From Mobula hypostoma (lineage: Eukaryota), in assembly GCF_963921235.1 (NCBI RefSeq), contig NC_086097.1:157234001-157298000 (forward strand): a DNA stretch of 64,000 nt, in the 5' to 3' direction. Made by a program: the position numbers and the translations under genes. The notes beneath the pieces are model-generated. The model searched no databases, was not told where the DNA came from, and saw only the letters and a program-made list of their open reading frames with translations. Of the stretch, positions 812 to 53,099 are shown in pieces. Each line of letters begins with the position of its first letter. The first letter of the stretch is position 1.

Positions 812-945
812 TGGTCCTGATGAAGGGTCTTGGCCCAAAACGTCAACTGTACTCTTTTCCATAGATGCTGCCCAGCCTGCTGAGTTCGTCCACCATTTTG
901 TGTATGTTGATTGTATTTCCAGCATCTGCAGATTTTGTCTTGTTT
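812..945 (+). repeat. Penelope-derived terminal repeat (pLTR-like) with mutated hammerhead core
   Basis: tggtc-CTGATGA-agggtcttggccc-AAAA-cgtc-aactg then tttccatagatgctgc...ctgctgagtt...cattttgtg; same family as 38881-39018; GAAA changed to AAAA. Confidence 0.8.
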
Positions 946-1899
946 CTGCTTGTCCTCAGCCTTCAGAAATATTAACATAAGCATGGACTACTGAAATAAA
1001 TAATCCATTACAAAAATTGCCCCAGTTATCCAAGAGTCTGCAATCGGAAATCTTGCTGTAAATGTCAAGGATTAGCTAGAATCAGTAGAGATACACAGCT
1101 GGAGAAGATTTTAAGACTTGTTATTTTTCCCACCTAACATTCTGGGTACAGAAACAGTTTTCACACCTGAAATTCAATTTAAATGAAAAGTGTAACCAAA
1201 TATAACTACTAGAATTTTTTGACCACCCAAAACGCAATTTAGATAATGAAATTTTCATATATTAATTTCCTTTTCAAACAAATGAAGAAGATGTAGGATA
1301 GCAAGCTAAATCCTGTTTCTGAAACCACTGTTTGGATCGAGGAATGGAGAGACCACTCCTTTGGAAGCGGCGAGTGAGAGACTGTCACATGCATACACCT
1401 TCCTGTGGTAGCTGCGAGCAAGCGACTGTTGATGGCATTCCACACTCACCACAATGTTTTCAATCTTCCTCGATGCTTTAACTGGTGAGATCATAAAGCA
1501 CCATCAATGAATACTGTGGGATATAGATTAGTTACTGATACACGTAGAGGAAAACCTGGTGGAGTTTAATCAGGGCAAACGTGAGCAGTTGTATTTTGGG
1601 ACATGAAATTAAAGAAGAAGGTACACTGTTATTGTCAGCATTATTAACAACTGTGAAGTACAGCAGGATCTTGGGGTTGAAGTCCATACTGCCCTTAGCA
1701 ATCCCTTCTGAGCCCGTAAAACCACAATGGAGACAATTTATTCTCCATCCTTGAGGACTATCTACAGAGAAGAAAAATCCAATGCTGAGATGGTCATACA
1801 ACCAAATTAGAAATCCTAAATCCCTATTGATATTAGGCGAATCCTCATCATAGTGGCTGAAAAATATATTTACAGATAAGGGAAACATATTCCTACAAG

Positions 1900-2312
1900 A
1901 GGACCACAACTTTGTTGTTGTTTGGAGGCTTGCTTGCCCCAATAACCTGGAGAGCTATGCTGGCTGGAGTCCAATTCTTATGCTTTGGTTCCTGATAAGG
2001 TCACCTATGCCAAACAGATCAAAGGGTAGAGGCCAGACCCAGAGTGATCCACTGTTCCTCCAGGTTTGGGAGTTCAGCTCAGGGCTAGCAACCCTGACTA
2101 GTCAAACAAAACTATTATGGAAAGAGCAATGAAGAAACCTTCTGCATCTGTGTATGATGGTACAGGAGACCAAAGCCAACTTGGTGGTGTACTGTAGAGG
2201 CATAAATGAGGGCCCTGAACCACACCTAGAGCACAATAGAGAAGAAGGCCAAGCACAGACAGAGATGGAGGACCTTCATTGCTGCCGTAAACGCCAGCAG
2301 TATGATGGAATC
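1900..2312 (+). mobile_element. RTE-like non-autonomous LINE derivative (5' and 3' ends joined)
   Basis: 5'-like segment gggctagcaaccctgactagtcaaac; 3'-like segment reads ...KAQTEMEDL / RWRTFIAA, resembling RTE ORF ends; recognised by eye only. Confidence 0.4.
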
Positions 2313-2646
2313 AGTGTTTTTTAAGGGATTGTGGTCAGAGACAGAGAGAATCCTTGTGGGAATATCCAGGCTGAGATTTCAAAGACATTGCAAAAAATAT
2401 ATTAACTGGCTATGAGTGGCATCTAAATTATAGCAAGAAACACCATTAAGTATAACAAATAAGAGTGTACAGTATATCTATACATGTATGTTATTGTACA
2501 CACAAGTGGCCAGATCTTCAGTGTTTGTTATGTGTTCGAGCTTCTGGGCTAAAAAGTTAAAAAAGAAAGTGTAAAGTTAACAAGTTGAAATGAAAAGTTT
2601 GGATACAATGGTGTATTTGTTGAGCTTCACAGGAATATAAATTGTA

Positions 2647-2711
2647 ATGCTGAGGATGGAGCCTTCCTTCAAAGCAACAAGTGAGCTTCAGTCAACAAGT
2701 CTCATAAATCA
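2647..2711 (+). CDS. Candidate first coding exon of an unidentified plus-strand gene
   Basis: Acceptor cttcacag ends at 2632; in-frame TAA at 2638 precedes ATG 2647; reads MLRMEPSFKATSELQSTSLIN; consensus donor gtaagt at 2712; phase 2 matches the next candidate exon. Confidence 0.4.
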
Positions 2712-4013: not shown

Positions 4014-4340
4014 CACAGCAGGGGTGATTGATAAGTTTATGGCCTAAGGTAGAAGGAGATGAGTTATTAACTTCAAACTTTCTGCATAATCACTCAGAGT
4101 TGAACTGCATGTGCATGTAACATGAGCTGGATAACTCATCTCCTTCTACCTTAGGCCACGAACTTATCAATTACCCCTGCTGTGGACACTTTCTGGAGGT
4201 CCAAGATCCGTATGTTCCACGACCGCTGGACTAAGTGTGTAAATGTAGGAGGGGACTATGTTGAAAAATAAATGTGCTAGGTTTTCTAAAATTGAGTCCT
4301 TCTACCCTATAGGCCACAAACTTATCAATCACCCCTCGCA
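4014..4340. mobile_element. Mariner-like MITE with nested inverted repeats
   Basis: 4014-4067 is the near-perfect reverse complement of 4131-4184; a third arm at 4297-4338 ends ...atcacccctcg, like a mariner-type TIR. Confidence 0.75.
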
Positions 4341-5454
4341 CTTGGACAGTACAATTGTGGCTGTATCTTGCTTTTGTACACTGCTTATGGATTACATTGA
4401 AATCCTTTGGATACTTCCTCAGGAAAGTGTTTGATATGTAAGCAAATACAAACAGCCGATTTATATGCACTGTACAAAATGGACAATGATTCAAAGTATA
4501 GATTGTCTGTTTTTAAAGGAGTTGATTAGGAAAACCATGTTGGCAAGAAGGGCTCAACTTTCTCTGTTCTTTGCCATGTGCCTACTCTAATGTTTCATCG
4601 TAAAATTATTATAGCATAAAATTATTGAATCACAGTTACCGATGGTAGACTGCCATTTGGCCTGTCAAGTCTGTACCAGTTATATGTATGAATAATCTAG
4701 CTTGTCCTACATTTATAAAATTTCTCTTACTTCAGATACTTGTCCAGCTCCTTTGAGAACACAACAAATTAACCTCTCATCCCTGTTATGCCTACCAGTG
4801 CATTTCAGAATCTAACCATAGGCTATGCAAAAAAGCTCTTCTCCCTCATGTTCCATTTGGTTCTATTGCCAGTCCTGATGCAAGGTTACAACCTGAAATG
4901 TTATTTGTTCATTTCCTTCTATAGATTCTGCAACTCACCCATTACTCTGGATTCAAGCACCAAGTGTTTCCATAACCCTATTGCCAAACACCTTTATTGT
5001 GTTCTTCAATTCCTGGTCTTCTTTACCAATCGGAACACTTTCTATTTGCTCTTTGTATCCTGCATTATATCAGATCCCTTTGAAATCAACTCTATTCCTG
5101 GGAGAATGACCATGGGGTATCCACATAACAAAAGCATATTATCTCTGTGATCTGTTCACAGGATCTCTTTCATATCTTTTCTGAAGCCTTTACATTTTTC
5201 CAAAAAGGTAGTGTGCATAAATTAACACAATACATCAAGGGTGGTCACATCACCATTTCACAAATGTTCAACATGTTTTCTTTTCTCTGTTTTTCTACTT
5301 ATCAGACCCAAGTTCTTTTCCACATCTTTAACTACTTCCTCAATTAAATATGAACATCTACCCAAGATCTCCCTGTTCCTAATTCTGCAGTTTATTTTGC
5401 TTCTTCTCATTCTTCCTGCCACTTTGCATTGCTCAACATTAAATTTTAAATTTT

Positions 5455-6035: not shown

Positions 6036-6039
6036 AAGG

Positions 6040-6486
6040 AATACACACAAACTGCTAGAGGAACTCAACAGGTCAGGAAGCATCTATGGAACTGAATAAA
6101 CAGTCGATGTTTCAGAGGAAGACACCAGCATAAAAAGGTGGGGGAAGGGGAATGAGAATAGCTAAAAGGCGACGGGTGAAGCCAGATGTGTAGGAAAAGC
6201 GAAGGGCTGGAGAGGAAGAAATCTGATAGGAAAGGGAGTTCACCATAGGAGAAAGGGAAGGAGGAGATGACCCAGGGTGGGTGATATGCAGGTGAGAAGA
6301 GGTTAAACGGCCAGAGTAGAGAATAGAAAAAGAGGGAAGGGGGAGGGAATTTTTTTTTTACTGGAAGGAAAAATCGAAACTCATGCTGCTAGGTTGGAGG
6401 TTACCCAGACTGAGTATAAGGTGTTGCTTTTTCACCTTCAGGATGGCTTCCTCGTGACAAAAGAGGCGGCCATGGACAAACATGTT
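6040..6486 (-). mobile_element. Penelope-like element 3' end (ORF end, UTR, pLTR remnant)
   Basis: Minus strand reads MFVHGRLFCHEEAILKVKKQHLILSLGNLQPSSMSFDFSFQ* (GIY-YIG C-terminus), then a pyrimidine-rich UTR and the repeat gaaacatcgactg...tgagttcctctagcagtttgtgtg. Confidence 0.8.
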
Positions 6487-8065
6487 GAGTACAGAGAGGA
6501 AATTAAGAACCTGGTGGCATGGTGCGAAGACAATAACCTATCCCTCAATGTCAGCAAGACGAAGGAATTGGTTGTTAACTTCAGAATGAGTAGCAGACCG
6601 CACGACCCAATTTACATCGGTGGTGCGCAAGTGGAACAGGTCAAAAGCTTAAGATCCTTGGGGTCGATATCACAAATGACCTGACTTGGTCCAACCAAGC
6701 AGAGTCCACTGCCAAGAAGGCCCACCAGCGCCTTTACTTCCTGAGAAAACTAAAGAAATTTGGCCTGTCCTCTAAAACCCTCACTAATTTTTATAGATGC
6801 ACCATAGAAAGCATTCTTCTAGGGTGCATCACAACCTGTTATGGAAGTTGTCCTGTCCAAGACCGGAAGAAGCTACAGAAGATCATGAACACGGTGCAGC
6901 ACATCACACAAACCAATCTTCCATCCGTGGACTCACTTTACACCGCACGCTGTCAGAGCAATGCTGCCAGAATAATCAAGGACACAACCCACCCAGCCAA
7001 CACACTTTTCGTCCCTCTTCCCTCCGGGAGAAGGCTCAGGTACTTGAAGACTCGTACGACCAGATTTGGGAACAGCTTCTTTCCAACTGTGATAAGACTG
7101 CTGAACGGATCCTGAACCTGATCTGGGCCGTACCCTCCAAATATCCGGACCTGCCTCTCGGTTTTTTTGCACTACCTTACTTTTCATTTTTCTATTTTCA
7201 ATTTATGAATGTAGCCCCCTGGCCAGCCTCAGGGTCACTCAGCTCGCTGTTGTCTAGGGAACCAGCCCTTGGCCCCGCCAAACTGAGTAATTAGTTTGTG
7301 TGGATGCTGTGTGATGTACCCCACCCCGCCCAAATAACAGACAATACACCAGATACGATTAACTGATTTACAGTTTATAGTTATTACTGGAACTATATAA
7401 TTAATAGAGAATAAAATATAAAAGGAAAATATAAGGTGCCACACTTAACAAAGTTCAATCTGTTCGTGCACAAACAGTTGGAGCTCAGGACCCTCCTTCT
7501 TCACTCTGCAATCCCCTCGGACCACCTCGACCTGCCACCTGGGACCAACAACAGTGGTCGACCAGATGATCCACACGAGTCCGTCTCCGTCTCCCCTCCT
7601 CGCCGAACACCCTGGACCTCGGATTCCTGCTCAGGGTCCGACCCCCTTAACGGACTCACAGCACCTGGTCCATCCTCTGTCTCTCTCTCTCCTGCCTTCT
7701 CCCCCAAAACCCGTGCATACAATATCTTACAGACACACAGAAAGCATGACAACTATCCCAATTGGTTCATTTGTCCTCTTATCAATAGATAATCCAAAAC
7801 AATCTGCTAGCTGGAGGACTTTCTCAGCAGTTAGCATAACAAAGAAGCCCTTTCAATTATAACATAACAAAGAAGCCATTTTAATTAGACTACACGGTGA
7901 CAAAAAAACCCTTACAATTTATAATTTAAATTTTTAATATTTACTATTGATTTGTAATCCAGGGAGCGGGAAGCGTGGAATCAAATATCGCTGTGGTGAT
8001 TGTGCATTCTAATATCAATTGTTTGGCGACAATAAAGTATAAAGTAAAGTGTAAAGTAAAGTAAA
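6487..8065 (+). mobile_element. 5'-truncated Rex1/Babar LINE (RT C-terminus), interrupted by a solo LTR
   Basis: EYREEIKNLVAWCEDNNLSLNVSKTKELVVNFR ... IIKDTTHPANTLFVPLPSGRR...NSFFPTVIRLLN; tail aataaagtataaagtaaagt. Confidence 0.9.
7210..7916 (-). mobile_element. Probable solo LTR inserted in the Rex1/Babar 3' UTR
   Basis: TGTA...TACA termini; about 700 bp GC-richer block that splits the AT-rich LINE UTR; no clean TSD seen; strand tentative. Confidence 0.6.
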
Positions 8066-8076
8066 ATTAAATCAAA

Positions 8077-8435
8077 TTAAAATGTTTGGCCACTGGAAAA
8101 GTTTCACTTTTGGTAGATGGAGACGTAGGCGCTCTATGAAGCAGTTCCCCAATTTACCGCAGGTCTCATCATTGTAGAGGAGGCTGCATCAGGAGCATTG
8201 GACACAATAGATGGCCCCAGAAGATCCACAGCTGAAGTGTTGCCTCACCTGAAAGGACCGTTTGGGGCCCTGAGTGGAGGTAAATGGGTAGGTGTAGCAC
8301 TTTGGCCGCTTGCAGGGATAAGTGCCGAGAGGGAGATTAGTGGGGATGGACAAATAGACAAGGAAACCACAGAGGGAGCAATCTCTGCAGTAACTGGGTG
8401 GGGTAGTAAAGATATGTTTGGAAGTAGGATCCCTT
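8077..8435 (-). mobile_element. Penelope-like element GIY-YIG endonuclease fragment
   Basis: GTYPCKRPKCYT...QGPKRSFQVRQHFSCGSSGAIYCVQCS*CSLLYNDET: Cys-rich linker plus GIY-YIG-like motif; collinear with 6040-6486. Confidence 0.85.
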
Positions 8436-11269
8436 AAGGATCCTACCATCAAAGGAATAATTTTATGGGTCATTTTTAATTTACTACCAATCATTTATTC
8501 TATCAGCTTAATTATAACCCCTTATTATTACCGTCAAATACTCAGATAGAGGCTATTTAACGTATTGTCCATGTTGGTTCTTTGCAGAGTAATCTAGATA
8601 TCCCATATCACTGCTTTATCCCATTGAAATGCAAAGTATTTTTCTTCAAGTGTCTGTCTAATTCCCTTTTGATGTCAAAAATTAATTTTCCATCTCTGTC
8701 AATGGAGTGCATAGTGACTGTATGCTACAGTCTGTAATTGATTTGAAATGGAGTTGTATTACAAATGTGAGCCAATATTCCAGTCCTCCACCTAGGACAA
8801 GAATCAAGCTGGGTATTTCTTGAGGTGGTCTGTCCTCAGAGAAGTGCCATACATTGCTCATAAATAGTTCAGAGTGAAAATATTGCATTCTAGTTATATG
8901 AGTTAATACAACTTGAGGCTATTATAAATGATTAATTATAATATTATTGCAAAAGTAATAAATAGAGGCTGCATGGTAACAATCTACAATAAGCTTATTA
9001 AGCAGTTAAAAGGATTTCATTTATTGGAAACCATCAAGCAGAGCAAAATTATACACACACAAAGCCAGAAGGCATGTGCTTCTCTAAGTAGTTCTTAAAT
9101 GTGTCTGGAATTTAACATTTTCAAACAAATTCATTGATAATTGTGTGAATTACAGATAGCATTCTCTCATACTTAGCTGTGAGCAGCCACACTCTGAAGA
9201 CCTGGCTTATCAGTCTCCTTAGTAAGAACTTATTTATACAGGCTTGGTTAGCGCACTGCCAGTAAATTTAATATCATGTCAGAGTTGAGTTCATATTCTC
9301 CCAAAAATTTTAAAAGGAATGCCGTACCTGCCATCTCAGTGAGCTAACAGGATTTCAGTTTCAAAAGGTGGCACGTTCTGTGGCACAGCATTCTCTCAGT
9401 ATTCATTATCAACTTAGATTTTTGTGTTTGAGTCTCTGGCTTGAGACATGAACCCACGATCTTCTGTCCTTCCCCCCACACCCCCCCCCCCGATCCTCCA
9501 GCTCTCAGAGGAAACAGAGAACGAGTGAAGAGCTTTGTGTAAAAGCGGTTTTCCCAGTATGTTGAAATGACCTGTGGGTAGGCTGAACAGAAAGGCGCAT
9601 GCACTTGTCATGATCAAAATCATGCCCAAAGAGCACTGGATGCTCAATAATCCAGTTTAGGCATTTCTTCCGCATCATATGACAGCTCCTTTCTTCACAG
9701 AAGAGCCATGATTCTCATGGGACTAGTGCACTGAACGTGTGCATTCTGCTGAGCAATTTAGGCAACACATAGACTTCAAGCTTCCATATCCAACAGCACA
9801 AGGAGTTGAATGACAACTCTCGGATCTTTCTACAAAGAACAAAATACACCTGAAATAAAACAATTCCTCCTTAGTTTTGCTTTCCCCTTCATTTGCTTGA
9901 AAAGCCAGTGGTGTTGGTTGATCTCCTCAGAAGCAATGGTAAGCTAGAAGTTTAGAATTATGGTTATTTAGAATTGGTACAGCAGTTTCAGGTAACCTTA
10001 AATGGAGACTAAAACCCACTCTAGTCCTTGCTAACTTTGTATGGAAACAACAGACTCAGAATAGGCTGTGGGTACCAATTTAACTTAATTTTTATTTATA
10101 AATTCCAAGTGTATGTTATTAGTGCTATTTATGTTAATTGGCAGATTGGTCAGTTGGTAACACATGGATTATCCAAGCACACCAGAAGTATGCACAGTAC
10201 GCTATTGATGTCATCAATTTCGTTGCAACAGCCATTGATGCCAGTCCTGCCAGCTTTGCATGTGACAATCCAGTAAGGATTAATGAAGCAAGAGGAAGCT
10301 AGCATGTAACAGCAGGGAGACTCCATAATCATCTCTACTCAACATAATGCCCACAAAGGGGATCCTAAACATCACATATGTTTGCTTGTTGTTGATATTA
10401 TTGGGGAAAACTGTAGTAATAGCTTTGAATAAAAAGGTAACACTCTCGTAATCCTTCAGTGAATGTTTAAGATGGGTCTGACTGCTCTGTGCAAGGAACG
10501 TATTGTCTGAGCTGTGATGGTGGGTCTGACTGTTAAACTCTTACTGTCTCTTACGTCCAGGTCTGGCTTCATCTGAAACAGAGAGGTACAGTACCGAAAC
10601 AGCCCTTCGGCCTACCATGCCGATGCTGATATTCTATACCAGCACGAGTCTATAGCCTTGTATTTCTAGGCTATTCAAAGACAATTCACTCTATTTGGTG
10701 TGTAGTGGTAGTGCAGTGGTGGAGAGCAGCAAAATATGGCTATGTAGAGTCTTGTTAACTTTGTGGGCTTGCCAGGGGAGCAATTTTGACTGACAGCACC
10801 CAATTTGCCTTGCCAAAATTTGGTATTAGCACCCTCCCACAGGAAATCCCAAACCACAGTATTATAAACCTGATGGTTAATCATGGACATGAGAGGCAGT
10901 GTGGAAAGGTACCTTAAAACCTTAACCCTCCTCCAAGCTCTTTATCTTTTGGTTCCTACACTGGACCAATAGATTGCTGCTTGAGAAAAAGGTTATCCTT
11001 GTTAAACCTGGTTCCAGACACCAATCCAAGCCAACACAGGAAGTGTTCTTGAAAAAGGATAAAATAATCAGCAGACTATTGGCATTCGAAAGGAATAGTC
11101 TCACTTATTGAACTACTTTCGACATAAAACTGTTATGCACTGCAGTGAAGGTTTTCCAGCATGTGGTGATTGCTAATTCTTCCACAATCTTGGTTTAGTC
11201 CATGTTCAGACACTATCAAGAGGAGAGACTGAATGATAGAAATGGCCTTAAAAAGCCCTCCTATTTTTT

Positions 11270-11510: not shown

Positions 11511-11730
11511 CACTTTCGTATGGATAAAGCTGTGACGAAAAACATCATAATATCACTTCATTCTTCAGGGAAGCATTCTAGGTTCAAGAATCCTTGTTGC
11601 TTCTTCAACAGTTTCAATAGATTCAATTCTTCATAAGATTAGAAGTGAAGGGTATCCATAGCAGATCGTAGGTGACAAGTAAAACTTGTGCTGCTGCAAG
11701 GTCCAGGTAATAAGCAAACTGCTGGGTCAA

Positions 11731-12212
11731 CTCAGCAGGCCAATCAATACCTGGGGAGGAAAAGGATTTGAATGCATTTTGGGGAGGGATCCCAAAACAT
11801 CAACTGACCTTTTCTCTCCACAGTTGCTGCTCAATAGGCTGAGTTCCTCCAGCAGTTTGTTTGTTGCTCCTGATTCTAGAATCTTCAGTCCCTTCTAATC
11901 TCCGAGTGCAGGCAGTGATTATCTATAACAATGACAGCTAACCCTACTCCTCTTAAAATTCAACAGCACTCATTGTGAGCTCCTCCACCATAAACATTCT
12001 GTATGTCATCACACATCAGAAACAACTAGTTTGATGAGTAAAAAAAGCACAAGTGCTGAGTATCTGCTGGTGTTCTGTATGTCAGGTTTCTTTGCAGCAG
12101 CTCCATATCCCCCACTTCTACCATCTGGAAGAGAAAAGGCGGCATGTGTCTGGGTAACTCACCATCTGCAGGCTTACCTCCACATGACACATTATTCCAA
12201 GTTGGAATTACA
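11731..12212 (+). repeat. Local duplication, copy 1 (copy 2 at 13138-13601)
   Basis: Collinear from ctcagcaggccaatcaatacctgggg to attattccaagttggaattaca; composite of a pLTR remnant and an old LINE fragment. Confidence 0.9.
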
Positions 12213-13137
12213 GTATTTTAGTGATCCTTCATTCTCAATCTATTAAAACCTAGCAAATCTCTTCCTAACAACACGTTGGCAGTACATTCATCACAAAAAC
12301 TACACTGGCTCATGATAGTGAACCCTGGCTATCAGGACAACAAGGAGTGCGTAATAAATGCTTGTTTTGAAAGCACTGCCCATGTTCTATAAAGGAATAT
12401 GAAAAATGTGAACTCTTATTAAATCTGTCTAATAATCTCTTCTTCCTCATTAATGTATTTAGTTGCAATTAGTCATGTTCCTCATTAAGTAACATGCCTG
12501 GGTGAAGGTATTATGTTTCTGTATTCAATTTCCCCACCATGCAATGTTGGAGACTTGCATCTAATTGGAATTGCATGGTGGTTTGTGAACAGTAAAACTG
12601 AGGCACTGCACATTAATTTTGATCATTTGCAGTCTTTATAGACTCTAAAATTGGAATTACCCAGCTTGGTGGAGGGTATGTACTGCCACATGGAATAACC
12701 ATACATCACAGGGATTAATCACAATGCCACATAATATAAATTAACTCATGTCTGCATTATAATTATTTAGCATTTGTTTATTTCTCACAAAACCTTTATT
12801 TCCTACTAGAACAGTTAATAATTTTTAAGAACTCTTCCAGTATTTCAATATGATTAATCATATTTTTACCGTCAAAAGTATCCTGACCGGTTACATCATG
12901 GCCTGATATGATAATTCAAATGTGCAGGAACATAAGATATTGTGGAGAATAGTAGACTCAGCTGACCACATTCTTTCCCACCGTCAGTTGTATCTACAGG
13001 TGACATTGACTTAGGAAGGCGATATCCGTCATCAAAGAACCCTACCATCCTGCACATGAAATCTTCTTGCAGCTACCATTAGCTACCATTAAAGGTTAGA
13101 AAAAAAACTTGAAGTTCCATATCACCAAGTTCAGAAG

Positions 13138-13601
13138 CTCAGCAAGCCAATCAATACCTGGGGAGGAAAAGGATTTGAATGCATTATGGGGAGGGATCCC
13201 AAAACATCAACCGACCTTTTCTCTCCACTGTTGCTGCTCGTTAGGCTGAGGTCCTCCAGCAGTTTGTTTGTTGCTCCTGATTCTAGAATCTTCTGTCTCT
13301 TTTAATCTCCGAGTTGCAGGCAGTGATTATCTACACCAATTGACAGCCAAACCTCTTCCTCTTAAAATTCAACAGCACTCATTATGAGCTCCGCCGCCAT
13401 AAACATCCTGTATGTCATCGCACATCAGAAACAACTAATCTGGTGATTTAAAAAAAATACAAGTGCAGAGTACCTGCAGAGTGTTCTATATGTCAGGTTT
13501 CTTCTGCAGCAGTTCCATATCCCTCACTTCTACCATCTGGAAGTAATTCACCATCTGCAGATTTACTTCCACATTGCACATTATTCCAGGTTAGAATTAC
13601 A
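13138..13601 (+). repeat. Local duplication, copy 2
   Basis: Matches 11731-12212 with substitutions and a small deletion; directly follows a Rex1/Babar fragment (about 12870-13135). Confidence 0.9.
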
Positions 13602-14168: not shown

Positions 14169-14302
14169 TAGTCCTGCTGAAGGGTCTGGGTCCGAAACGT
14201 TGACTGTACTCTTTTCCATTGATGCTGCCTGTCTTGCTGAGTTCCTGCAGCATTGTGTGTGTGTTGTTTGGATTTCCAATATATACAGATGTTCTCTTGT
14301 TT
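14169..14302 (+). repeat. Penelope-derived terminal repeat with near-intact hammerhead
   Basis: tagtc-CTGCTGA-agggtctgggtcc-GAAA-cgtt-gactg; one core substitution (CUGAUGA to CUGCUGA). Confidence 0.8.
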
Positions 14303-15381
14303 GTAATTGGATTTATTTGTAATTGTATTCATCTCTCTGACTTTTTGTTTCAGTCTTGTGAAGTCTTGACCGAAACACAGTGATGGTAACACTCCCTACT
14401 TACCTCAGTCCACATTCCTAGAAAGTGGATCAGTGATTTGTATAGACACAGTTAATGGAGCAGTATTAATTTAATTCCAGGTTACTGCTTTTGAGCCACA
14501 GTGATGGCATTAGTTTCTAGTTAGTTTGAGAATTTTTATAGTTACTGGCCCTGTTGGCCTAGTGTTTATTATTTTCCTTTGTACTGTACAGGTCTTAATA
14601 AAACTGAGTAAACTGTTCATTCCGTATCTGTGGCTCTCCCTCTGCACTGGGGCCATCACTGAACTCCTGTCATCAGCCTACTGAACCAGAATGGGTAACT
14701 TCACTCACTTCAACACTAAACTGATTCCACGACCTATTGACTCACTTTCAAGAACTTTACAACTTATATTCTCAGCATTTGTTTATTCATTCATAATTAT
14801 TATTATTATTTGTCTTTTGCACATTGGTTGTTTATCAAGCTTTGATAGTGTATAGTTGTTCATTGATCTATGGTGTTTCTTTGTTCTGCTGTAAATACCA
14901 GCATGAATAAATGATTTTCAGGTGTCATATGATGACATATGTACTTTGATAACAAATTACTTTGAACTTAGAAACAGTTATACATTGAGTTATATCATTT
15001 TACTATAAGAAGTTTGAATTTTACAAAATTTATATACATATAATAATACAGAAATTGAACTAATTGAATGGGTTAAAGCTCAATTCTTTGGAAGAGGTTT
15101 AAGGTATTTTTTAATATAGGATGTGCATAAAGGATGGTTCCAATTGCAGGCAAGATCAGAGCAATAAGTAAAAGTATACAATAAAATCACCAGCAACTTC
15201 AACAGAGATACAGGAAAAAAACATGTTTGCTGATATATTTGTTAGAAAGAGCCCCACAAAAGGGATTTGGACTAAATAACATACTGTAGTTTCACATAAA
15301 GGAAAGTGAGAATAACGTATGGAGTTAGGAAACTGGAGGATATGTTTGTGGAGTTTGATGGACACTGATGATGAGTCTGTG

Positions 15382-15908
15382 TGTCTTGCAACGAATGAGG
15401 CGAACCCAAATGCAGGACACAGGCATGGAGATTGAGTTAGGATGCAGACGCGGGCGTGAGCGCTGAACGGCAAACAGGAGGGAGTGCAGGAAAGCAGGAG
15501 GCAGGCAGAACTTATCTTGACACAGAGCGTAGAAAGGAAAGTGGCAGACAAAACTTTTCTTAGCACAGAGAGACTGAGTTACACAGGTAAACCTTGGTGC
15601 TGAAATAAACCTTAGAATACTTATCTTGACATGGAGAGACTGAGTTTCACAGGTAAATCTCGGTACTGAAGCAAAACTTAGAACACACAGTCCTAAGCGG
15701 CCGGGAAACGTTAATTACCACCCTGACAAAACCAACAATCTGGCAACTAGTGGGTGCAAAGCCGGGCTTCTTATGCTACAGGTCATGATGAAAACAGGTG
15801 TGCTATCATCAAAGGAAATTAGGAGAAAATAGGGAATTAAGGTCGGAACCCTGGCACAATCAATGGGAATTAGGAGAAAATGGGGAATTAATGGTCAGGA
15901 CCGTGACA
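15382..15908 (-). repeat. 3' LTR of the chromovirus
   Basis: TGTC...GACA termini; adjacent purine tract gaggagaggctac on minus; last ~113 bp repeated at 18623-18736; contains internal tandem repeats. Confidence 0.85.
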
Positions 15909-17588
15909 GTAGCCTCTCCTCAATGGGAGCCTCAAGGTGAACCACTAGGCTTGTCTGGATTGTCTCAATGTAAATCTCGGATGAGGGAAGAGTCCAGGAT
16001 GAAGGAGCAGGGAATCCATGAGCGTTCTTCCAGGCCATATCCCTCCCAATCAACCAGGTACTGGTGACCCCTGCCTCAACAATGCACATCCAGTATTCGC
16101 CGGATGGTGTAAGCTGGGTAGTCATCAATGATCCGGGCGGGTGGAGGAGGTTCAGCTGGATGGCACAAAGGGCTGACAGACACAGGTTTCAGTTAGGAGA
16201 TGTGGAACCTGGGATGAATGTGCATGGACCTGGGCAGTTTGAGTTTGACCATCGAGGGGTTGATAATGCTCTCTATTTCGAATGGTCCAATGTAACAAGG
16301 AACGAGTTTCTTGGGTTCATTCTTGAGGGGGATGTTTTTTGAAGAGAGCCAAACCTTCTGGCCAGGCTGATAGTTGGGTGCAGGAATTCGATGGCGATCG
16401 GCAATCCTCCGGTTGCGTTCAGCTGAGTGGAGCAGGGCCACGCGTGCATCCTTCCAGAACTTACAGCACCAGTGGAGATGGGCCTGAACTGAAGGCACAG
16501 TAATGTCGTCTTCATGGGCAGGAAACAGAGGGAGTTGATAACCGAGGGAGCTTTCGAAGGGAGACATTCCGGTGGCGGTGCTAACCAGGGAGTTGTGGGC
16601 ATACTCCACCCAAGAGACACTTACAGTACCCTGGAGGAACTCAGCAAGTTGGGCAGCATCAGTGGAAACGATGAGTCAACGTTTCGGGCCGGAAGGATTT
16701 GAAGAATCCACCCAAGTGAGATGGGTGCTCCAGGATGACGGGTTGTTGGCAGATACACAGCACAGTGCTGCTTCCAAATCTTGGTTTGCTTGTTCCATTT
16801 GACCATTAGTCTGTGGATGGAAACCGGAAGACAGACTTACTGAGTCTCCAAGGGCTTGACAGAAGGATCTCCAGATTTGAGAGATGAATTGGGGGCCCCG
16901 GTCAGAAACAATGTCAGAGGGAATTCCATGAAGGCGGAATACGTGATGGACAAGGAGGTCGGTGTTTCATGGGCTGTAGGGAGTTTGGGAAGGGCTATGA
17001 AGTGCAGGGCTTTGGAGAAACGGTCTGTGTCTGGACTCTTCCCTCATCCGAGATTTACAACAAGACAGTCCAGACAAGCCTGGTGGTTCACATTGAGGCT
17101 CCCATTGAGGAGAGGCTACTGTCACAGCTGAGTACAGCAGTGTTACCATGTGAAGGGGTAGTCCAGCAACAAAATCCAGAGCAATGTGGGACCAAGGGCA
17201 GCCAGGGACAGGGAGGGGACGAACCAACCCAGCGGGTGGCCGATGGGAGGCTTTTCCGTGGGCACACACAGAACAGGCAGAGACGAAGGAACGAGTGTCA
17301 GCATCCATGGTGGGCCACCAGAAATGTCACTTCAAAAGGGACAGAGGTCGATCGATTCCAGGATGGCAGGTGAACCGGGAAGTATGCCCCGAATGGAGAA
17401 CCTGAGACCAAACAGAGTTAGGCACGAAGAGACCACTGGGGGGTCCATTGCCTGGGTCAGGTAGATTCTGTTGTCCTCCTTGATTATGGATTTGATCTCC
17501 CAGGTGAGGGCAGCCACAACACAGAACAAAGAACGTAGAACAGTACAGCACTGTATAGTCCCTTCAGCCCACAATGCTGTGCCGACTC

Positions 17589-18611
17589 TCAAACCCTGCC
17601 TCCCATATAACAGGATGGTGGAAGGATGTTATCAGGGTTGGGAAGGCAGTCCTTGGAGACGTATTGATGAGAGAGAGCATCTGGCTTCCCATTCTTGGAA
17701 CCAGGACAATAGGTGAAGGTGAATTTGATACAGCCAAAAAATAATGCCCAACGGGCTTGGTGGGAATTAAGGCGTTTAGCGGTTTGGATGTATGCCAGGT
17801 TCTTATGGTCCATCCAGACGATGAATAGATGTTCTGCTCCCTCCAGCCAGTGCCTCCACTCCTCCAATGTGAGTTTGACGGCCAGCAACTCCCGGTTCCC
17901 AATGTCATAGTTCCGTTTGGTGGGAGATAGACAACGAGAGAAGAAGGCGCAGGGATGGAGCTTTTGGTCTGGGACGAAGCATTGAGAGAGGACCACTCCC
18001 ACCCCAGAGTCGGAGGCGTCAACTTCCACAATGAATTGGCAAGAGGGATCAGGTTGTGCCAGGATGGGAGCAGAGGTGAAATGCCTCTTCATCTCTGAGA
18101 AGGCTGAATCCACTTTGGGGGTCCAGTGGAAGGGGGTCGCAGGAGAGGTGAGTTGAGTAAGGGGCGCTGCCACCTGGCTGTAATCCCTGATGAAGCAACG
18201 GTAGAAGTTTGTAAACTCCAGAAAACGCTGGATTTGTTTGAGTGTCGTGGGTTTTGGCCACTCTGCCACCACCGGGATCTTTTCGGGATCCACCCTTACT
18301 TGCCCGCTCTCAATGATGTACCCCAGGAAACTGACAGAACGGGCATGGAACTCGCACTTCTCTGCCTTAACGAATAGCTTGTTCTCCAAAAGCCTCTGAA
18401 GAACCTGACAGACATGATGGGTGTGTTCCTGAAGACTACGGGAGAAGATTAGGATGTTGTCCAAATAAATGAAAATGAAACGGTTAATAAGGTCCCTAAG
18501 GACGTCGTTGACCAGGGCTTGGAAGATGGCAGGGGGTATTGGTGAGACCGAATGGCATGACCAGATATTCAAAATGACCAAGGGGGGTGTTAAAAGCTGT
18601 TTTCCATTCAT
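17589..18611 (-). pseudogene. pol: Gypsy pol fragment (RT-RNase H), catalytic YLDD changed to YLDN
   Basis: 340 aa ORF with Gypsy RT/RNase H motifs; frameshifted N-terminus; no gag or protease upstream. Confidence 0.9.
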
Positions 18612-20974: not shown

Positions 20975-21699
20975 AAGCCAATCAAAACTGTCAAAATCAG
21001 TCTTGCAAGATTCAGTCCACCGTATCATCAGAAATGCACAGATCTATACATGCAATGCAATATCTTCAAAGTGGAATTGTTTGAATTGCACACAATAATT
21101 GTATTAACCTGATTCTGCGAAGAAAGTTAAATATAATTGCACTTTTGAAGAAAAATACCATGGCAACAACATCTAAACTTCCAATTCCTTTTGTCAGTAG
21201 AGTATGAATTTTGCAATGAGCTATGTAAGAGATGGAACAGGTTGTGTGAACATGAGATGTGATATTTAAATTCTGACTGCTGACTTTTGGAACCTATTCA
21301 GAATGAAATCCAGAGGAAAAAAAAAGAATCATTACTACACAATCTGTCAGTCTTAATTCAATTAAAATTACAAAATTAGACTGCTTTATAATGGGTAAGA
21401 GCATACTGCAGGATTCTGAAACTACAGTATGTAACATATTAAAGCAAAATTGCAGTTATTTGTCATTGTTTAATGAGACAATCTGTGTAGGTTGATGGAA
21501 TAGGACTGGGAAACCATTTGACAGTAACAACATAGAAATCAATTTCTGAAAAAAAGATAAAAATACTCTTAAGTACTAGAGTCTCAGAGTACATACTAGA
21601 AATAAACAGCAGAAATAAATATAAAACAATCTAGGGTCACCCTATTCCAGTGGTAAGAAAAAGAAAGAAACATTGGTTAAAAACAAAGGATTTCCCAAC

Positions 21700-21798
21700 A
21701 ACACACACAAAATGCTGGAGGAACTCTGCAAGTCAGGCAACATCCATGGAGGGAAATGTACAGTCATCATTTCGGGCCAAGACCCTTCATCAGGACTG
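21700..21798 (-). repeat. Penelope-derived terminal repeat, hammerhead core intact but stem III mutated
   Basis: Minus: cagtc-CTGATGA-agggtcttggccc-GAAA-tgat-gactg; perfect 5-bp stem I. Confidence 0.8.
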
Positions 21799-25015: not shown

Positions 25016-25017
25016 AC

Positions 25018-38780: not shown

Positions 38781-38880
38781 GTAAGGTCCTTACCCAGAAA
38801 GTGGTGGATGCAGGGAACCTGCCAAAGCTAGTGGCAGAGACAAGTAAACCGGGTTCATTGAAAAAAATACTCTTAGATAC

Positions 38881-39018
38881 CCCTCCCACTTTCAAATCTC
38901 TTGCTAGCTCTTCCTTCAGTTAGTCCTGACGAAGGGTCTCGGCCCGAAACGTCGACTGTACCTCTTCCTAGAGATGCTGCCTGGCCTGCTGCGTTCCCCA
39001 GCAACTTTGATGTGTGTT
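38881..39018 (+). mobile_element. Young Penelope-derived short insertion with 10-bp TSD
   Basis: Flanked by tcttagatac (38871-38880 and 39019-39028); CpGs retained; ends in tgtgtgtt. Confidence 0.88.
38921..38958 (+). ncRNA. Minimal type I hammerhead ribozyme motif
   Basis: UAGUC-CUGACGA-A-GGG(ucucgg)CCC-GAAA-CG-UC/GACUG: stem I UAGUC:GACUG, core CUGANGA and GAAA, 3-bp stem II, palindromic ACGU stem III, GUC triplet ending at 38953. Confidence 0.8.
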
Positions 39019-39069
39019 TCTTAGATACGCAAATGGGTGATAGAAAAATGAGATCATGAGAACTGAAGA

Positions 39070-39910
39070 TCAAAAGACATAGGAGCAGAATTAGGCCATT
39101 TAGCCCATTGAATCTGCTTTGCCATTCAGTCTTGGCTGATCCTTTATTCCCCTCATCAGCCCCACTCCTCATAACCTTTGATGCCATGGCCAATCAAGAT
39201 GCTATCAATCTCCACCTTAAATACACCCAACAACCTAGCCTCCACAGCTGCCTGTGGTAACAAACTCCACAAATTCACCACCTTCTAGCTAAATGAATTT
39301 CTCTACATCTCGGTTTTAAATGGACGCCCCTCTATCATTCAGCTCCCATCTACAACCATTCTTCAGCCACGATTCAGTGTTGGCCACAAAATCATCCCCA
39401 AAACATCCCCAATATACTTATACTCGCCCCAATGGCTGCAATTTTATCCTACCATTTGCCTGCCCTTCCTGACAATCTGACTGCACACTATCTTTGCTTT
39501 TTTTTACCAACCATCCAATCCTGAGTTCCTTCTCCAATTCCCATCCCCCTGCCCAATTAGTTTAAACCTTTCCCCAGCACCTCTAATAAACCTGCCTATG
39601 AGAATATCGGTTCCCCTTTGGGTTCAGGTGCAACCCATCCCTTTCGTACAGGTCATACTTTCCCCTGTAGAAATTCCAGTCATCCAAGAAACTAAAGCCC
39701 TGCCCCCCGCACCAGCTTCTCAGCCATGCATTTATCTGCCAAATCATCCCATTTCTACCCTCACCAGTGTGTGGCACAGGTAGCAATCCAGAAGTTACTA
39801 CCATCGTGGTCCTGCTTCTCAGCTTTCCTCCTGGCTCACTAAATTCTCTCTTCAGGACCTCTTTGCTTTTGCTTCCTCATTGCTACCAATATGTACCAAG
39901 ACATCTGGCT
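39070..39910 (-). mobile_element. CR1 fragments (ORF1 esterase region and 3' end)
   Basis: VVTSGLLPVP...NAWLRSWCGGQGFSFLDDW...RDGLHLNPKG; 3' UTR at 39070-39340. Confidence 0.85.
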
Positions 39911-43647: not shown

Positions 43648-43679
43648 CATGAAGACAAGTTGAAATTTCCTCTCTAACT
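43648..43679 (-). CDS. Candidate short exon of the minus-strand gene
   Basis: Branch-like ttaac, T-rich tract, catag acceptor; (E)LERKFQLVFM; consensus donor ATG/gtaagt; phases 1-0. Confidence 0.38.
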
Positions 43680-45704
43680 CTATGGTAATAGTACACAAAA
43701 TAATAGAAGTTAAACTCTCTGCAAACATATTTTTGCAGAGCCTTTGCCTATAGTATTTTAAAATGAAGCACTCTTGCAAAATTTAGGTTAAATATTTTAG
43801 ATGCACACAGCTCTAGCTCTGTATCGTGACTTAGTACTTCAGCTTTTAGAAGCACAGAAAAAGACAAATAAATGGGATTGTTAGGCCGACTACAATTGAA
43901 TCTATTATCCATCACATTCAAAGTATTATCAGTCTTCATTGTCAGTCAATCTGTAGACACTTAAAAGTATATTCTGTTACTGAGGGTTCATCTGGATAAA
44001 ATGTAAATGCAGTGCTGCATAGCTTCAGTGAAAGGCTTGAACATAAGTATGAAAAAGAAAATATTTTGATGTAGGATTTGAAAGGAAACAGTCAAAGAAC
44101 AGATCTATGTGGACACATTAATATTCTGATAGATGTTTAATGTAATTGAGTTAGAGCGATAATATGAAGTAACAATGAACAGAATTATTTAAGAGAACTC
44201 TCTGGACATGGAAGAATTGAGAACTAGTAGTGCTATAAGACACCATCATGAGGATTTGCTGATGAATGAGCTGTTCAGGATAAAGAAAATAGATTCTGAA
44301 CACGGGCCATTGGCTGAAACACAGGATCAGTTCCCAGCAGTGGAAGCAGGGACGCTGGGAAGTTTGCTCTACAATGACTGTCCACTATTTCTCAATGTGG
44401 CCTTGTAATGCTATTACATTCAAGCTGATAAATATGTTTTTTTACTGAAAATGGTTGATAATAAGCCAACTTCCAAGAGGTGTCAGTGGTTTCAAATCAT
44501 TTACCAGTCCTCATTCTTTCACCACTTCAAATGGGGTAGGATGACAATACTTTTGCCAATCATTCTTTCAAATTTGGCAGAAATATCTTGTGAATGCAAG
44601 AAAGAAATGACAGAAAATGGCATTAGTACTAACTAGAAATAAAGATATCAACAAAAGAATCTCGAATCAGCAAACAATTAGAAGATGGACATAAGTTAAA
44701 AAAATTAATTATGTATTGCCAATAAATAAAATGATAGGTTCACTTAGTGTTTTGCCGTGCTGAATCTTCTCTAAGTACTTCAGTGTGTTTTGAAGTGCTT
44801 TGCTGCAATTAAATAGGTCTGCAGTGAATGGAGAGAGGTAATATAAATTGAATATAGTTCCCATATTATAAATTATAAAGGATGTTCTGAAAGAAGAGAT
44901 GCAAAGAACCAGTGCCCATGTGCCTGGGAGACATATTGCTTGAAAGAGACCTGCAACAAATCATGTCCTACTAGTAGAAACATATTTCAGAACAAAAAAT
45001 GGGAAAGCAAATAAAAATCACTTCTTGTTGTTTAATGGAGCAGGTGGAATAAGAAATTAAAATTGTTTCATCTTGATTACTCGCAGAAAGCTTTTGCTAT
45101 ATTAATATCTGTAATTGTATATAAGTTATTAATTATTAGTGCAATGGAATTTCAGGGCAGCAGGCTTACTTGGGGGAAAAAAGATCAAATCCATTATTAA
45201 GAAAGCCATAGACCAGTATTCAAAAAAAATCCTAATACAATCAAGCAGAGCTATTCCACTATATATGAATAGGAAACTGTGTTTGATCATTTGCTTTAGA
45301 AATTTTTGAAGATGTAAAGAGCAGGATGAATAAAAGTGATCACTAGAAGAGGTACATTTGATGATATACATTATAAAATGTTAGCAACCAACTTAAATAT
45401 TTATGGCCATGAGATAACATATAGGACAGTTGATTGGTTAACTAACCAAGAACAAAAAGTTGGGATAAATGGGACATTTTCAATTGGCTTACTTAGTAGA
45501 ATCAACCATAGAGCTTCAAGTTTATTATGAGCTATTTTCAAGACAAATTTAAAAAAACTGCAATCAAATTTACAGATGATACAAAGAAAGGGGAAAAACT
45601 ACTTTGAAGGACATAACAATCCTCTGGAATTATAGGCAAGTTTAAAAAAAGCTGGCAAACGTATGAGAAAATGGAGTTCCCTGTTGGGAAATGTGAGGTG
45701 TGAA

Positions 45705-46495
45705 ATGCCTGTTCACCTGTGACTGACCATGGCCAGATTCTGCTCTAACTCCACCTATAAATTTGCAGCTGACACCACAGTACGGAACTGCATCTCAAAT
45801 AATGAATAATCAGAGTACAGGGAGTCACAGAGCTTATTAACATGGTGCCATGATAATGACCTTCCCCTCAACGTCATCAAAAAAATAGAGCTGGTTATTG
45901 ACTTCTGAAGGGGGGATGACGCACATGCTCCTCTACATCAACAATACTGTGGTTCAGAGGGTTGAGAGCTTCAAGTTCCTGGGAGTGAGCATCAGCAACA
46001 GCCTGCCTTGCTCTAACAGCCTAGAAAGTTCACCAATGCCTCTACTTCCTCTGGAGGCTAAGGTAAATTCACATGTTCCTATCAACTCTTACCAAGTTTT
46101 ATTGATGCACCATAGGATGTATAATGGATTGGTATGACAACTGCTCTGCAGGTGGCCGCAAGAAATGGCACGTGGACAAAGTTCAACACATCATGGAAAG
46201 CAGCCTGCTCTCTATAAACTCGCCTGTATTTCTCGCTGCATCAATAAAATAATCAAATGGCCCTACCCACCTGGACATTTTATCTCCTCTCGTCATCTAT
46301 TGGGTAGAAGATACAAAAACCTGAAAGAACATATCATTAGCCTCAAGCACAAATTCTATCCTACTGTTTTAAGATGACTGAATAGTTTCCTAGTACAATA
46401 AGATAGACTCTTGTCTTCACAATCTACTTCATTATAATCTTTCACCTTATTGTTTACCTGCACTGCTCTCTGCAGCTGTTACACTTAATTCTTCA
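45705..46495 (+). mobile_element. Decayed Rex1/Babar RT fragment
   Basis: YKFAADTTV, LYINNTVVQRVESFKFLGVSISNSL, LLGRRYKNLK. Confidence 0.8.
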
Positions 46496-46497
46496 TG

Positions 46498-47133
46498 ACA
46501 CTGAGTATCAGGTACCTCCAGTACCTGATAAAATGGCCACTGAGTGTATGTTCACAGTCTTCTGCTGCAGTAGCCCATCTGCTTCAAGACTCAATGTGTT
46601 GCATGCTCAAAAATGCTCTTCTGCACACCATTGTTGTAACATGTGGTTATTTGAACTGAAAGGTCTCAGCCCAAAATGTTGACTGTACTCTTTTCCATAG
46701 ATGCTGCCTGGCCTGCTGAGTTCCTCCAGCATTTTGTGTGTGTGACCTTCATCTTCCTGTCAGCTTGAACCAGCCTAGTCATTTCTCCTCTGACTTTTCG
46801 TTAACAAGACATTTTCACCCACAGAACTGCTGCTTAAAGGATGTTTTTTCTTGTTTTTTTGCAGCATTCTCTGTAAACTCTAGAGACTGCAATGCATGAA
46901 AATCCCAGAATATCAGCAGTTTCTGAGATACTAAACTACTGCTGTCTGTCACCAACTGTCATCCCACAATCGGTCACTTAGATCACATTTCTTCACCCAT
47001 TCTGATGTTTGAACTGAACGTCCTAAACATGTCTTAAACATGTCATAAAATCCTATGCACATGATTGGCCGATTAGATATTTGCGTTAATGTGAAGATAT
47101 ACAGATGTACATAATAAGATGGTTACTGAGTGT
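46498..47133. mobile_element. Tc1-like non-autonomous element containing a pLTR insertion (about 46655-46745)
   Basis: TIR-like taaaatggccactgagtgta and ggttactgagtgta; same family in reverse orientation at 59966-60475. Confidence 0.7.
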
Positions 47134-53084: not shown

Positions 53085-53099
53085 ATCTTTTTCTCACCT

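Follow-up and report, generated by a model that had tools for sequence, protein, structure and literature searches.

Dispersed hammerhead-bearing repeats in a 64-kb window of DNA are very probably 5'-truncated ends of an endonuclease-bearing Penelope-like element

The hammerhead-bearing repeats dispersed over the 64-kb stretch of DNA analysed here (the window) are very probably 5'-truncated 3' ends of an endonuclease-bearing Penelope-like element (PLE) with a minimal hammerhead in its terminal repeat, and the copies, which are predicted to be inert, decay by CpG loss. The repeat family, first described in a sequence-only reading of the window, is real; its host is probably a cartilaginous fish. 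An nhmmer profile made from nine of the window's own copies gave 15 hits at E<1e-3, of which 12 insertions were counted as independent. The copies score between E 4.7e-40 and 2.5e-6, the scores of the nine training copies being inflated by construction, and the top hit in the reversed-window control has an E of 0.27. All ten loci of the earlier reading were recovered (812, 4868, 14168, 18912, 38919 and 46656 on the plus strand; 6122, 16691, 20322 and 21799 on the minus strand), together with three plus-strand loci that it had overlooked: 11791, paired with an inverted partner at 11763 (minus strand); 13198, a local duplicate of 11791; and 24367, paired with an inverted partner at 24365 (minus strand). 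PLE termini make up 1,498 bases, about 2% of the window, and its 12 loci correspond to one every 5.3 kb. The family is also very abundant, as had been claimed. Public sequencing runs contain 73,237 (X1), 47,886 (X5) and 19,741 (X9) contigs on the unit, and summed depth 5' of the ribozyme is about half of that on the 3' side in X1 and X5, which is not a copy number. In run X17, whose RNA nature is a guess and whose contigs reveal no ends, strand or level, the unit is covered by 6,533 contigs, with more depth 3' of the cut site than before it. Exact-pattern scans of viral contigs, metagenome contigs and prokaryote genomes returned nothing.

One locus joins the unit directly to the endonuclease ORF of a PLE. 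Here the terminus at 6036-6122 (minus strand), which belongs to a 5'-truncated Penelope element, has a short 3' end and lacks the 5' half of the hammerhead, adjoins C-terminal GIY-YIG codons (6486-6361) and a pyrimidine-rich 3' UTR (together 6123-6486, minus strand; tblastn with protein P0001, E 2.6e-10). The endonuclease is split by a later insertion of about 1.6 kb (6487-8065, plus strand, edges approximate), which holds the end of a LINE-type ORF (6594-7115) and a short tandem tail (8033-8071). Beyond it, at 8126-8485 (minus strand), lie a degenerate zinc-finger linker and the start of the GIY-YIG domain (E 1.3e-32); the best of 20 shuffled queries reached 0.06. This places the motif in a PLE terminal repeat and supports the earlier proposal that the repeats are mobilised by Penelope machinery, the unit being the 3' terminus (pseudo-LTR) of the PLE itself. 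The remark that most copies have no coding sequence holds for 11 of the 12 loci, but not for the supposedly partial copy at 6040-6115, which is the end of this endonuclease-bearing element. P0001 itself has a sub-cutoff Pfam hit to GIY-YIG (E 4.6e-4); most of its relatives carry an RT label in Pfam and some also GIY-YIG. The CX2-5CxxC linker is intact in P0001, has its last Cys changed in the window copy and was detected by the linker-motif test in 49 of the 56 P0001 relatives examined. Full-length proteins with both RT and GIY-YIG (n = 55) matched the window at 8099-8431 only, revealing no RT sequence or full element there, although RT is present in the relatives; nor do two pseudo-LTRs surround an ORF within the 64 kb.

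Other hallmarks of PLEs are a pair of alternative 3' ends separated by about 30 nt, partners in inverted orientation on the 5' side (two of 12 loci) and target site duplications (TSDs) of 10-13 bp. The latter were found at three of the 12 loci, with no significant TSD at the other nine; exact words of at least 10 nt occurred in 1 of 1000 random pairs. A 9-bp candidate around the long 6122 element was within chance and was dismissed. As described in Craig 2021 (PMC8557442) and Arkhipova 2013 (PMC3846280), EN+ PLEs of the Neptune/Nematis type share with our family a C-terminal GIY-YIG, the CX2-5CxxC linker, frequent 5' truncation, an inverted 5'-truncated partner, an optional tail of 30-40 bp and TSDs of about 10 bp. 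Unlike these elements, the window has neither RT nor a partial tandem; the linker suggests the Neptune/Nematis clade.

The ends of the copies hint at how they were formed. The 3' ends fall into two classes, at about +98 to +111 (6/12) and +122 to +136 (5/12). Copies at 812-945 and 14169-14302 (both plus strand) run from +1 to +136 and have the long end, with a tail in the former; the one at 20193-20322 (minus strand) also has the long end and covers about +9 to +134, and that at 46656-46746 (plus strand) starts near +10, its exact edge lying anywhere between +1 and +11, and ends at +98. At 16610-16691 (minus strand), within a gypsy-type element, the terminus starts at about +20 and is flanked by a 13 bp TSD with one mismatch. 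An old head-to-head pair at 11712-11889 (plus strand) joins an inverted partner (11783-11715, minus strand) to a main copy from +23, the 5' half of the hammerhead being absent; the locus at 13131-13301 (plus strand) duplicates it including the flank, is about 90% alike and is not an independent insertion. The pair at 24327-24438 (plus strand), within a 12 bp exact TSD, consists of an inverted partner (24365-24329, minus strand) and a main copy from +68 to +134 without a hammerhead. Two copies reach further upstream: 38881-39022 (plus strand) extends from -40 to about +100 between 10 bp exact TSDs, and 21688-21825 (minus strand) includes some 20-30 nt of upstream pyrimidine tract (5' edge approximate). 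Older relatives are an old subfamily terminus at 18912-19003 (plus strand) and a diverged fragment at 4866-4939 (plus strand; 71% to the window profile, 3' end about +68). A relic motif near 14345-14385 fell below the noise level.

In eight of the 12 loci, the 5' end lies at +1 to +23, inside the ribozyme and 5' of its cut site (+33), and two more end within about 40 nt upstream of the ribozyme; none ends at the cut site. Overall, starts were seen at about -40, -25, +1 to +23 and +68, plus one far upstream. Under the best-fitting geometric model, the clustering of eight in 12 has a P of about 4e-5, with an interval chosen post hoc and an assumed detection floor. Plain random truncation would not predict this, which counts against the favoured reading in its simplest form. 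The idea of a discrete unit is right in that the 5' ends are clustered and non-random, but not in its single unit length. Similar to PAc, the Poseidon element of Anolis (Frangieh 2024, PMC11167929), the family has two 3' ends downstream of the ribozyme, and its insertions retain sequence 5' of the cut site, which an uncleaved template would account for. By analogy, the two classes of 3' ends likely reflect two internal RT start sites, which would yield the optional tail, and the position of the 5' ends suggests that the RNA template was uncleaved. Synthesis would then tend to stop either where the RNA ends at its 5' side nearby or at the ribozyme itself, folded or bound by protein. PAc belongs to another PLE clade and has its ORF start within the ribozyme; the candidate ATG of our family is located downstream of it.

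Within the same reading of 5'-truncated PLE ends, transcription start or splicing could provide another cause for the clustering, a variant that we regard as possible but rather unlikely. The Penelope pseudo-LTR contains a transcription start and a 5' UTR intron, according to Craig 2021 (PMC8557442), and the 5' end of helix I is where this intron stops (Cervera 2014, PMC4209133). In the 21798 copy, the AG of stem I (21797-21796) ranks 4th of the 8570 AG sites of the window as an acceptor in a simple matrix, which serves as a lead only. In five of six copies, a reading frame that begins with an ATG near +54 spans the remainder of the unit. The eight 5' ends at +1 to +23 and the two just upstream also speak for such a cause; however, the ends are not fixed but scattered over about 60 nt, and copies that begin at +1 have no common upstream exon sequence. 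The acceptor of the 38921 copy, 4 nt upstream, has a modest rank (206th), and a U-rich upstream stretch is general among such motifs. The 36-aa peptide of the 812 copy has no relatives among 1.84 billion representatives. As an ORF start, the downstream ATG gave no hits and showed no likeness to the N-termini of nine relatives, and was rejected. More specifically, it is conceivable, if improbable, that the ribozyme is a control point of the element in this lineage: the intron would end inside stem I, splicing would remove three of its five bp and turn the ribozyme off in the mRNA, and RT, beginning at the internal starts, would copy its own transcript's 5' pseudo-LTR back to that point. If so, a stereotyped by-product of 100-140 nt, about one per 5 kb, would be a SINE-like load produced by autonomous elements without any SINE master, and Drosophila Penelope and a vertebrate Neptune-type element would have a splice switch in common.

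That the motif is a hammerhead, as first read, is borne out by its match to the published minimal, dimer-type hammerhead (Cervera 2014, PMC4209133). The complete motif, of type I, at 38921-38958 (plus strand; predicted cut 38953/38954) has a stem I of 5 bp, CUGACGA, an extra A, a stem II of 4 bp, GAAA, the palindromic ACGU and no helix III. As in the published CUGANGA consensus, the extra base lies between A9 and 10.1, followed by a G10.1-C11.1 pair, GAAA and a palindromic C15.2/G16.2. A short stem I, a U-rich upstream region and mostly solitary copies attributed to truncated PLEs are likewise shared. Most helices II listed there are longer than the 4 bp found here, and the chordate rows examined include no cartilaginous fish. 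The study reports thousands of motifs per genome in coelacanth and Xenopus; the density here looks far higher, with 12 loci in 64 kb. Only at 38921 is the conserved core (CUGANGA ... GAAA ... UH) complete together with its stems. Single core changes affect the copies at 812 (G12>A, with stem I broken), 14169 (A6>C) and 21798 (U16.1>A). The sequence-only reading had the first two and the intact 38921 right, but it called the core at 21761-21798 intact, where the cleavage triplet GUC reads GAU. The 46656 copy also has G12>A, the core at 20193-20322 is truncated with H17>G, and the 18912 copy keeps its single-stranded core letters with both stems gone. The bare core pattern CUGANGA..GAAAC occurs at chance level (2 found, 1.3 expected) and an Rfam search of the window gave no hammerhead hit; the evidence for the hammerhead is the repeat family together with the paired stems.

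Folding predictions suggest that these copies are inactive. Stems I and II appear in the predicted folds of 38921 and 21798, but the 38921 fold is no stronger than shuffles (z -1.1), and the alignment fold of six copies recovers stem II and not stem I. The core of the 38921 monomer is predicted to fold into an extended hairpin, and the energy predicted for the active dimer, -16.7 kcal/mol, is less favourable than that of a pair of folded monomers (-25.8). The closest same-strand ribozyme-bearing hits, 7.7 and 20 kb away, are both mutated. Judging from these models and from the published motif, which did not cleave in vitro as a single copy and did so weakly as dimers (Cervera 2014, PMC4209133), a lone copy likely cannot self-cleave. 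Lacking helix III, the motif would depend for cleavage on another copy of itself or on the PLE protein.

With 38921 as reference, 32 of 76 CpG cells in ten copies had changed (29 transitions), compared to 19 of 203 other cells (Fisher p 3e-9), in agreement with the earlier remark on CpG transitions. Depth-weighted changes in X1 amount to 9-13% at seven CpG positions of the motif, including 10.4% at G12, and to less than 3% at non-CpG core positions. In the genomic copies, changes at the catalytic G12 are no less frequent than at neutral CpGs, which suggests that selection does not act after insertion. The proposed decay series is real as CpG loss but is not a single lineage, as there are several subfamilies with distinct sequence immediately 3' of stem I, of at least four kinds. 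The flanks of the 38-nt motif differ between subfamilies on either side, and the motif itself may be under selection in active master elements. Loose contig ends accumulate at the outer edges of stem I, at 38922-38924 and at 38959; as subfamilies diverge there too, those at 38922-38924 are not readable as 5' breakpoints.

These observations make it very improbable that solo copies act as latent ribozymes on host pre-mRNAs, by cis or trans pairing, and are shaped by intronic selection. One complete motif and a very high density would suit that role, but G12 decays like neutral CpGs, the monomer core is predicted to be sequestered in its hairpin and, as noted above, the published single motif is inactive. 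The split of eight in 12 loci on the plus strand is no significant bias (p 0.39). A search for host exons in the window yielded seven and then 21 splice-flanked candidates, none of which was established (exons below about 60 nt would escape); 26 candidate peptides (from the 21 and five ORFs) had no Pfam hit above the curated cutoff, and the best candidate exon, 54570-54638, no meaningful PDB match. The case for latent hammerheads in introns is weak, with one complete motif in 12 loci and mutated neighbours.

The earlier suggestion of an independent SINE- or retrozyme-like unit is not supported either: tandem arrays, a Pol III head and a uniform length are all missing, and at 6122 the unit runs on into the endonuclease ORF. 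We consider a discrete SINE-like family, derived from the pseudo-LTR and moved in trans by the PLE protein, quite unlikely. Non-autonomous PLE derivatives are known (Craig 2021, PMC8557442), and the loci without coding sequence, mostly 65-140 nt long with clustered 5' ends, resemble such a family. However, with at least four sequences after stem I, several subfamilies would each have to yield the identical short form, and the starts vary from -40 to +68. No tRNA genes were found in the window, no B box at the ten loci tested and no Rfam match. The family sequence also extends 5' of the TSD-defined end of the 38921 copy: in the three runs that are DNA or unclassified, 93, 67 and 21 contigs have loose ends before 38880. 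No public-run contig spans this locus, and hence no empty site was observed. Still, a short non-autonomous master is possible for some subfamilies, as only one of the 12 loci has coding sequence and the window holds no full element.

It is highly unlikely that the copies are solo monomers of a non-LTR retrozyme, in which tandem repeats are cut to unit RNAs that form circles and insert again. Pseudo-LTR-derived retrozymes are reported by Li et al. 2026 (10.64898/2026.07.22.740005) in the one chondrichthyan genome of that study, and these and the retrozymes of Cervera 2020 (PMC7229834) resemble our family in their type I hammerhead, pseudo-LTR link and dispersed monomers. Three head-to-tail returns inside the unit were found, but each is one contig, at depths of 5.6-10.1, in a count that covered part of the joints. 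Among the 12 TRF rows of the window there is no tandem array of the unit, nor are there tandem units with complete ribozymes. A ribozyme-cut monomer would start at +34, which none of the 12 copies does, and the motif is minimal rather than of the canonical type described in Cervera 2020.

The ribozyme motif of truncated PLE ends is already known from PLEs. For annotation, this means that hits of this kind should not be taken for host regulatory ribozymes. Craig 2021 (PMC8557442) calls the hammerhead's role in PLE transposition unclear, and 5'-end clustering in the ribozyme is not described in the available text of that study or of Arkhipova 2013. A dense family whose subfamilies share only the 38-nt motif, and whose 5' ends pile up there, is good material for studying that role. 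For the strand-bias test suggested earlier, it matters that copies reaching further upstream include a tract resembling a splice acceptor; this could produce a strand bias in introns with no ribozyme activity involved. An HDV-like fold for the downstream part was discarded after inspection by eye showed no P1.1/L3 pattern. Finally, a C11.1>U variant makes up about 45-59% of depth in X1, X5 and X17 and 10% in X9; it is not unusual, as a G-U at that pair is present in published motifs.

A search profile built from nine copies in the window itself gave 15 matches in the window at E below 1e-3, whereas the best match on the reversed window had an E of 0.27. A recurring unit therefore exists, as the sequence-only reading had claimed, and all ten loci named there are among the matches. 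Two matches are inverted partners that adjoin a main copy (11763 with 11791, and 24365 with 24367), and a third, 13198, arose when 11791 was duplicated locally along with its flank. Setting these three aside leaves 12 independent insertions, i.e., one per 5.3 kb, with identities to the window profile of 68% to 93% (inflated for the training copies). The local duplication spans ~320 bp (11731-12046 and 13138-13455, 88-94% alike) and copied an old inverted Penelope terminus and its flank. In our reading, which we hold with considerable confidence, the repeats are 5'-truncated 3' ends of an endonuclease-bearing Penelope-like element (PLE) with a minimal hammerhead in its terminal repeat. Reverse transcription would have started at two internal sites and stopped early, often at the ribozyme, leaving copies that are predicted to be inert and subject to CpG decay.

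Upstream of the copy at 6122 (-) lie a pyrimidine-rich UTR and then coding sequence at 6486-6361 and 8485-8126. This coding sequence matches P0001, a putative GIY-YIG protein attributed to a ray (tblastn, E 2.6e-10 and 1.3e-32, respectively; the best of 20 shuffled queries reached 0.06), and is interrupted by a later insertion of ~1.6 kb. P0001 was the sole match among seven candidates for the window fragment, at 63% identity. Among its 85 matches, the longer relatives are mostly RT-bearing and some are also labelled GIY-YIG, and 49 of the 56 relatives examined carry a CX2-5CxxC linker, which passages of Craig 2021 (PMC8557442) attribute to Neptune and Nematis. As 55 full-length relatives match the endonuclease region only, the PLE RT is absent from the window. 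A second, older Penelope endonuclease C-terminal fragment is found at 58088-58256 (-) (tblastn E 6.5e-8), with no terminal unit downstream of it in the profile search.

The repeats had initially been proposed to be a SINE- or retrozyme-like unit. Retrozymes are described as tandem units with complete ribozymes in parts of Li et al. 2026 (10.64898/2026.07.22.740005) and Cervera 2020 (PMC7229834), and a head-to-tail return does occur in at least three single public contigs among the joints listed. In the window, none of the 12 TRF rows is a tandem array of the unit, and same-strand ribozyme-bearing matches are at least 971 bases apart. The window contains no tRNA gene and no Rfam match for the unit, and none of the ten loci tested has a B box. 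Numbering the unit from the first base of stem I (+1 = 38921) places the predicted cut after +33; a ribozyme-excised unit should thus start at +34, and 0 of 12 copies do. These results argue against an independent SINE or retrozyme unit. What stands of the proposed discrete unit is that the 5' ends do not follow the spread expected of simple truncation: eight of 12 copies start between +1 and +23, a further two start no more than ~40 nt upstream, another starts at +68, and the last reaches over 800 element bases upstream. Under the best-fitting geometric model, which assumes a detection floor, P is ~4e-5 for eight of 12 ends at +1 to +23, an interval picked after viewing the data; two old copies (4868 and 18912) may have unrecognisable upstream sequence. 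The position of 5' ends upstream of the cut site suggests that the template was likely uncleaved RNA, as Frangieh 2024 (PMC11167929) observed in vitro. The clustering may reflect stalling at a folded or protein-bound ribozyme, or it may reflect run-off at the transcript 5' end, with the RT using the upstream pseudo-LTR.

The 3' ends form two classes, at about +98 to +111 (6/12) and +122 to +136 (5/12), with one copy ending at +68. The two classes are an optional tail of 30-40 bp, which a section of Frangieh 2024 (PMC11167929) traces to two internal RT start sites. Direct repeats of at least 10 exact bases flank three of 12 loci, compared with 1/1000 random pairs: 38919 (10 exact), 16691 (10 exact, or 13 with one mismatch) and 24327-24438 (12). 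At the other nine, no flanking direct repeats above chance were found. At two loci, an inverted partner adjoins the main copy head to head; similar TSDs and inverted pseudo-LTRs are reported in portions of Arkhipova 2013 (PMC3846280).

A complete minimal hammerhead is present at one locus of 12, at 38921-38958. Stem I (5 bp) is followed by CUGACGA and a single additional A, then by stem II (4 bp, closed by G10.1-C11.1), GAAA and a palindromic ACGU, and helix III is missing. This agrees with the consensus that Cervera and De la Pena 2014 (PMC4209133) give for minimal hammerheads. The copies at 812 and 14169 carry G12>A and A6>C, respectively, and the copy at 21798, whose core had been called intact, carries U16.1>A. 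At 18912 the core letters are retained and the stems are gone, and the remaining loci lack the 5' half of the hammerhead or the whole motif. A possible, very decayed second motif seen by eye at 14345-14385 (+), which follows the 14169 copy at a distance of ~180 nt, was below noise in a motif-only scan and was rejected. In the predicted fold of the 38921 monomer, the core is taken up in an extended hairpin (-12.9 kcal/mol). The predicted active dimer (-16.7 kcal/mol) is less stable than two hairpin monomers (-25.8 kcal/mol). In Cervera 2014 (PMC4209133), a lone minimal motif did not cleave, and dimers and trimers cleaved little. Eight of 12 loci are on the + strand (p 0.39), and comparison of splice-flanked candidates with Pfam and PDB identified no host exon in the window; the case for latent ribozyme activity of putatively intronic copies is weak. 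One 70-nt candidate at 54570-54639 (+), with a good donor, a plausible acceptor and open frames, is a possible host exon with no convincing Pfam or PDB match.

Exact-pattern scans gave no matches in collections of viral, metagenome or prokaryote sequence. Four public contig runs were compared with 38800-39070, to which 73,237 (X1), 47,886 (X5), 19,741 (X9) and 6,533 (X17) contigs matched; the first three are DNA or unclassified, and X17 is only guessed to be RNA. In those three runs, at least 93, 67 and 21 contigs, respectively, continue past 38880 with a shared upstream consensus, which means that the family sequence extends further than the TSD-bounded 38921 copy, a truncated form of it. Among those listed, loose ends pile up most at 38922-38924 and 38959, where stem I has its outer edges. 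Beyond them lie the flanks of other subfamilies: the 38-nt motif is common to the subfamilies, and the sequence on either side of it varies between them; we read this as probable selection on the motif in master elements. Among the positions listed, depth-weighted changes in X1 amount to 9-13% at seven motif CpG positions, including 10.4% at the catalytic G12, and to under 3% at non-CpG core positions. As G12 changes like the other motif CpGs, solo copies appear to decay neutrally. The CpG-biased substitution noted in the sequence-only reading also holds within the window (32/76 CpG cells changed, versus 19/203 others). At 38945 (motif position 11.1), C>T makes up 49% of depth in X1, 45% in X5, 59% in X17 and 10% in X9, far exceeding the matching G>A. 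From these per-site frequencies, as opposed to linked haplotypes, a large and young subfamily, marked by a G10.1-U11.1 wobble, is likely in organisms A and B; such a wobble is also found in published motifs (Cervera 2014 supplement, PMC4209133). Of the 12 joints listed, seven (kind of joint not stated) end at 38921-38923, where stem I has its outer edge, and may reflect inverted or tandem junctions that prefer this point.

Within stem I, the 5' arm contains an AG preceded by a pyrimidine tract, and we hypothesize that an intron could end at this candidate acceptor. With a simple acceptor matrix, the stem I AG of the 21798 copy ranks 4th among the window's 8570 AG sites, and an AG 4 nt upstream of the 38921 copy ranks 206th. 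In Drosophila virilis Penelope, the intron extends to the 5' end of helix I (Cervera 2014, PMC4209133). An ATG at ~+54 opens a frame across the remaining unit in five of six copies, which share one consensus and are not independent; no relatives of the peptide were found. However, minimal hammerheads generally have a U-rich stretch upstream (Cervera 2014 supplement, PMC4209133), and copies starting at +1 have no common upstream exon. If an acceptor does lie at stem I, any test for strand bias in introns would be confounded by it.

The motif, solitary truncated copies and the PLE link are already published. We found no paper devoted to the minimal hammerhead in sharks or rays in the open-access literature searched; Li et al. 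2026 (10.64898/2026.07.22.740005) cover one chondrichthyan, and sections of PMC6155905 and PMC544870 hold nothing decisive for this Penelope terminus family.

The window also contains other repeats. The 16691 Penelope terminus lies in a broken gypsy-type LTR element (15790-18740) with repeated ends, an internal inverted segment, and RT and RNase H Pfam matches at 17592-18620. A broken LTR-type retroelement at 50744-54483 (-) has an aspartyl protease match (52665-53093) and a direct repeat of 100 bp whose copies are separated by 3.6 kb. Directly downstream of the 24367 insertion, a 113-nt direct repeat (24488-24600 and 24697-24809, 209 nt apart and 78% alike) overlaps an Rfam match that is weak and below threshold. 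A repeat of ~320 bp forms an inverted pair at 19176-19500 and 26703-27057 (78-89% alike), and a compact, MITE-like inverted repeat at 4014-4184 has 54-nt arms that are 94% complementary, with 63 nt between them.
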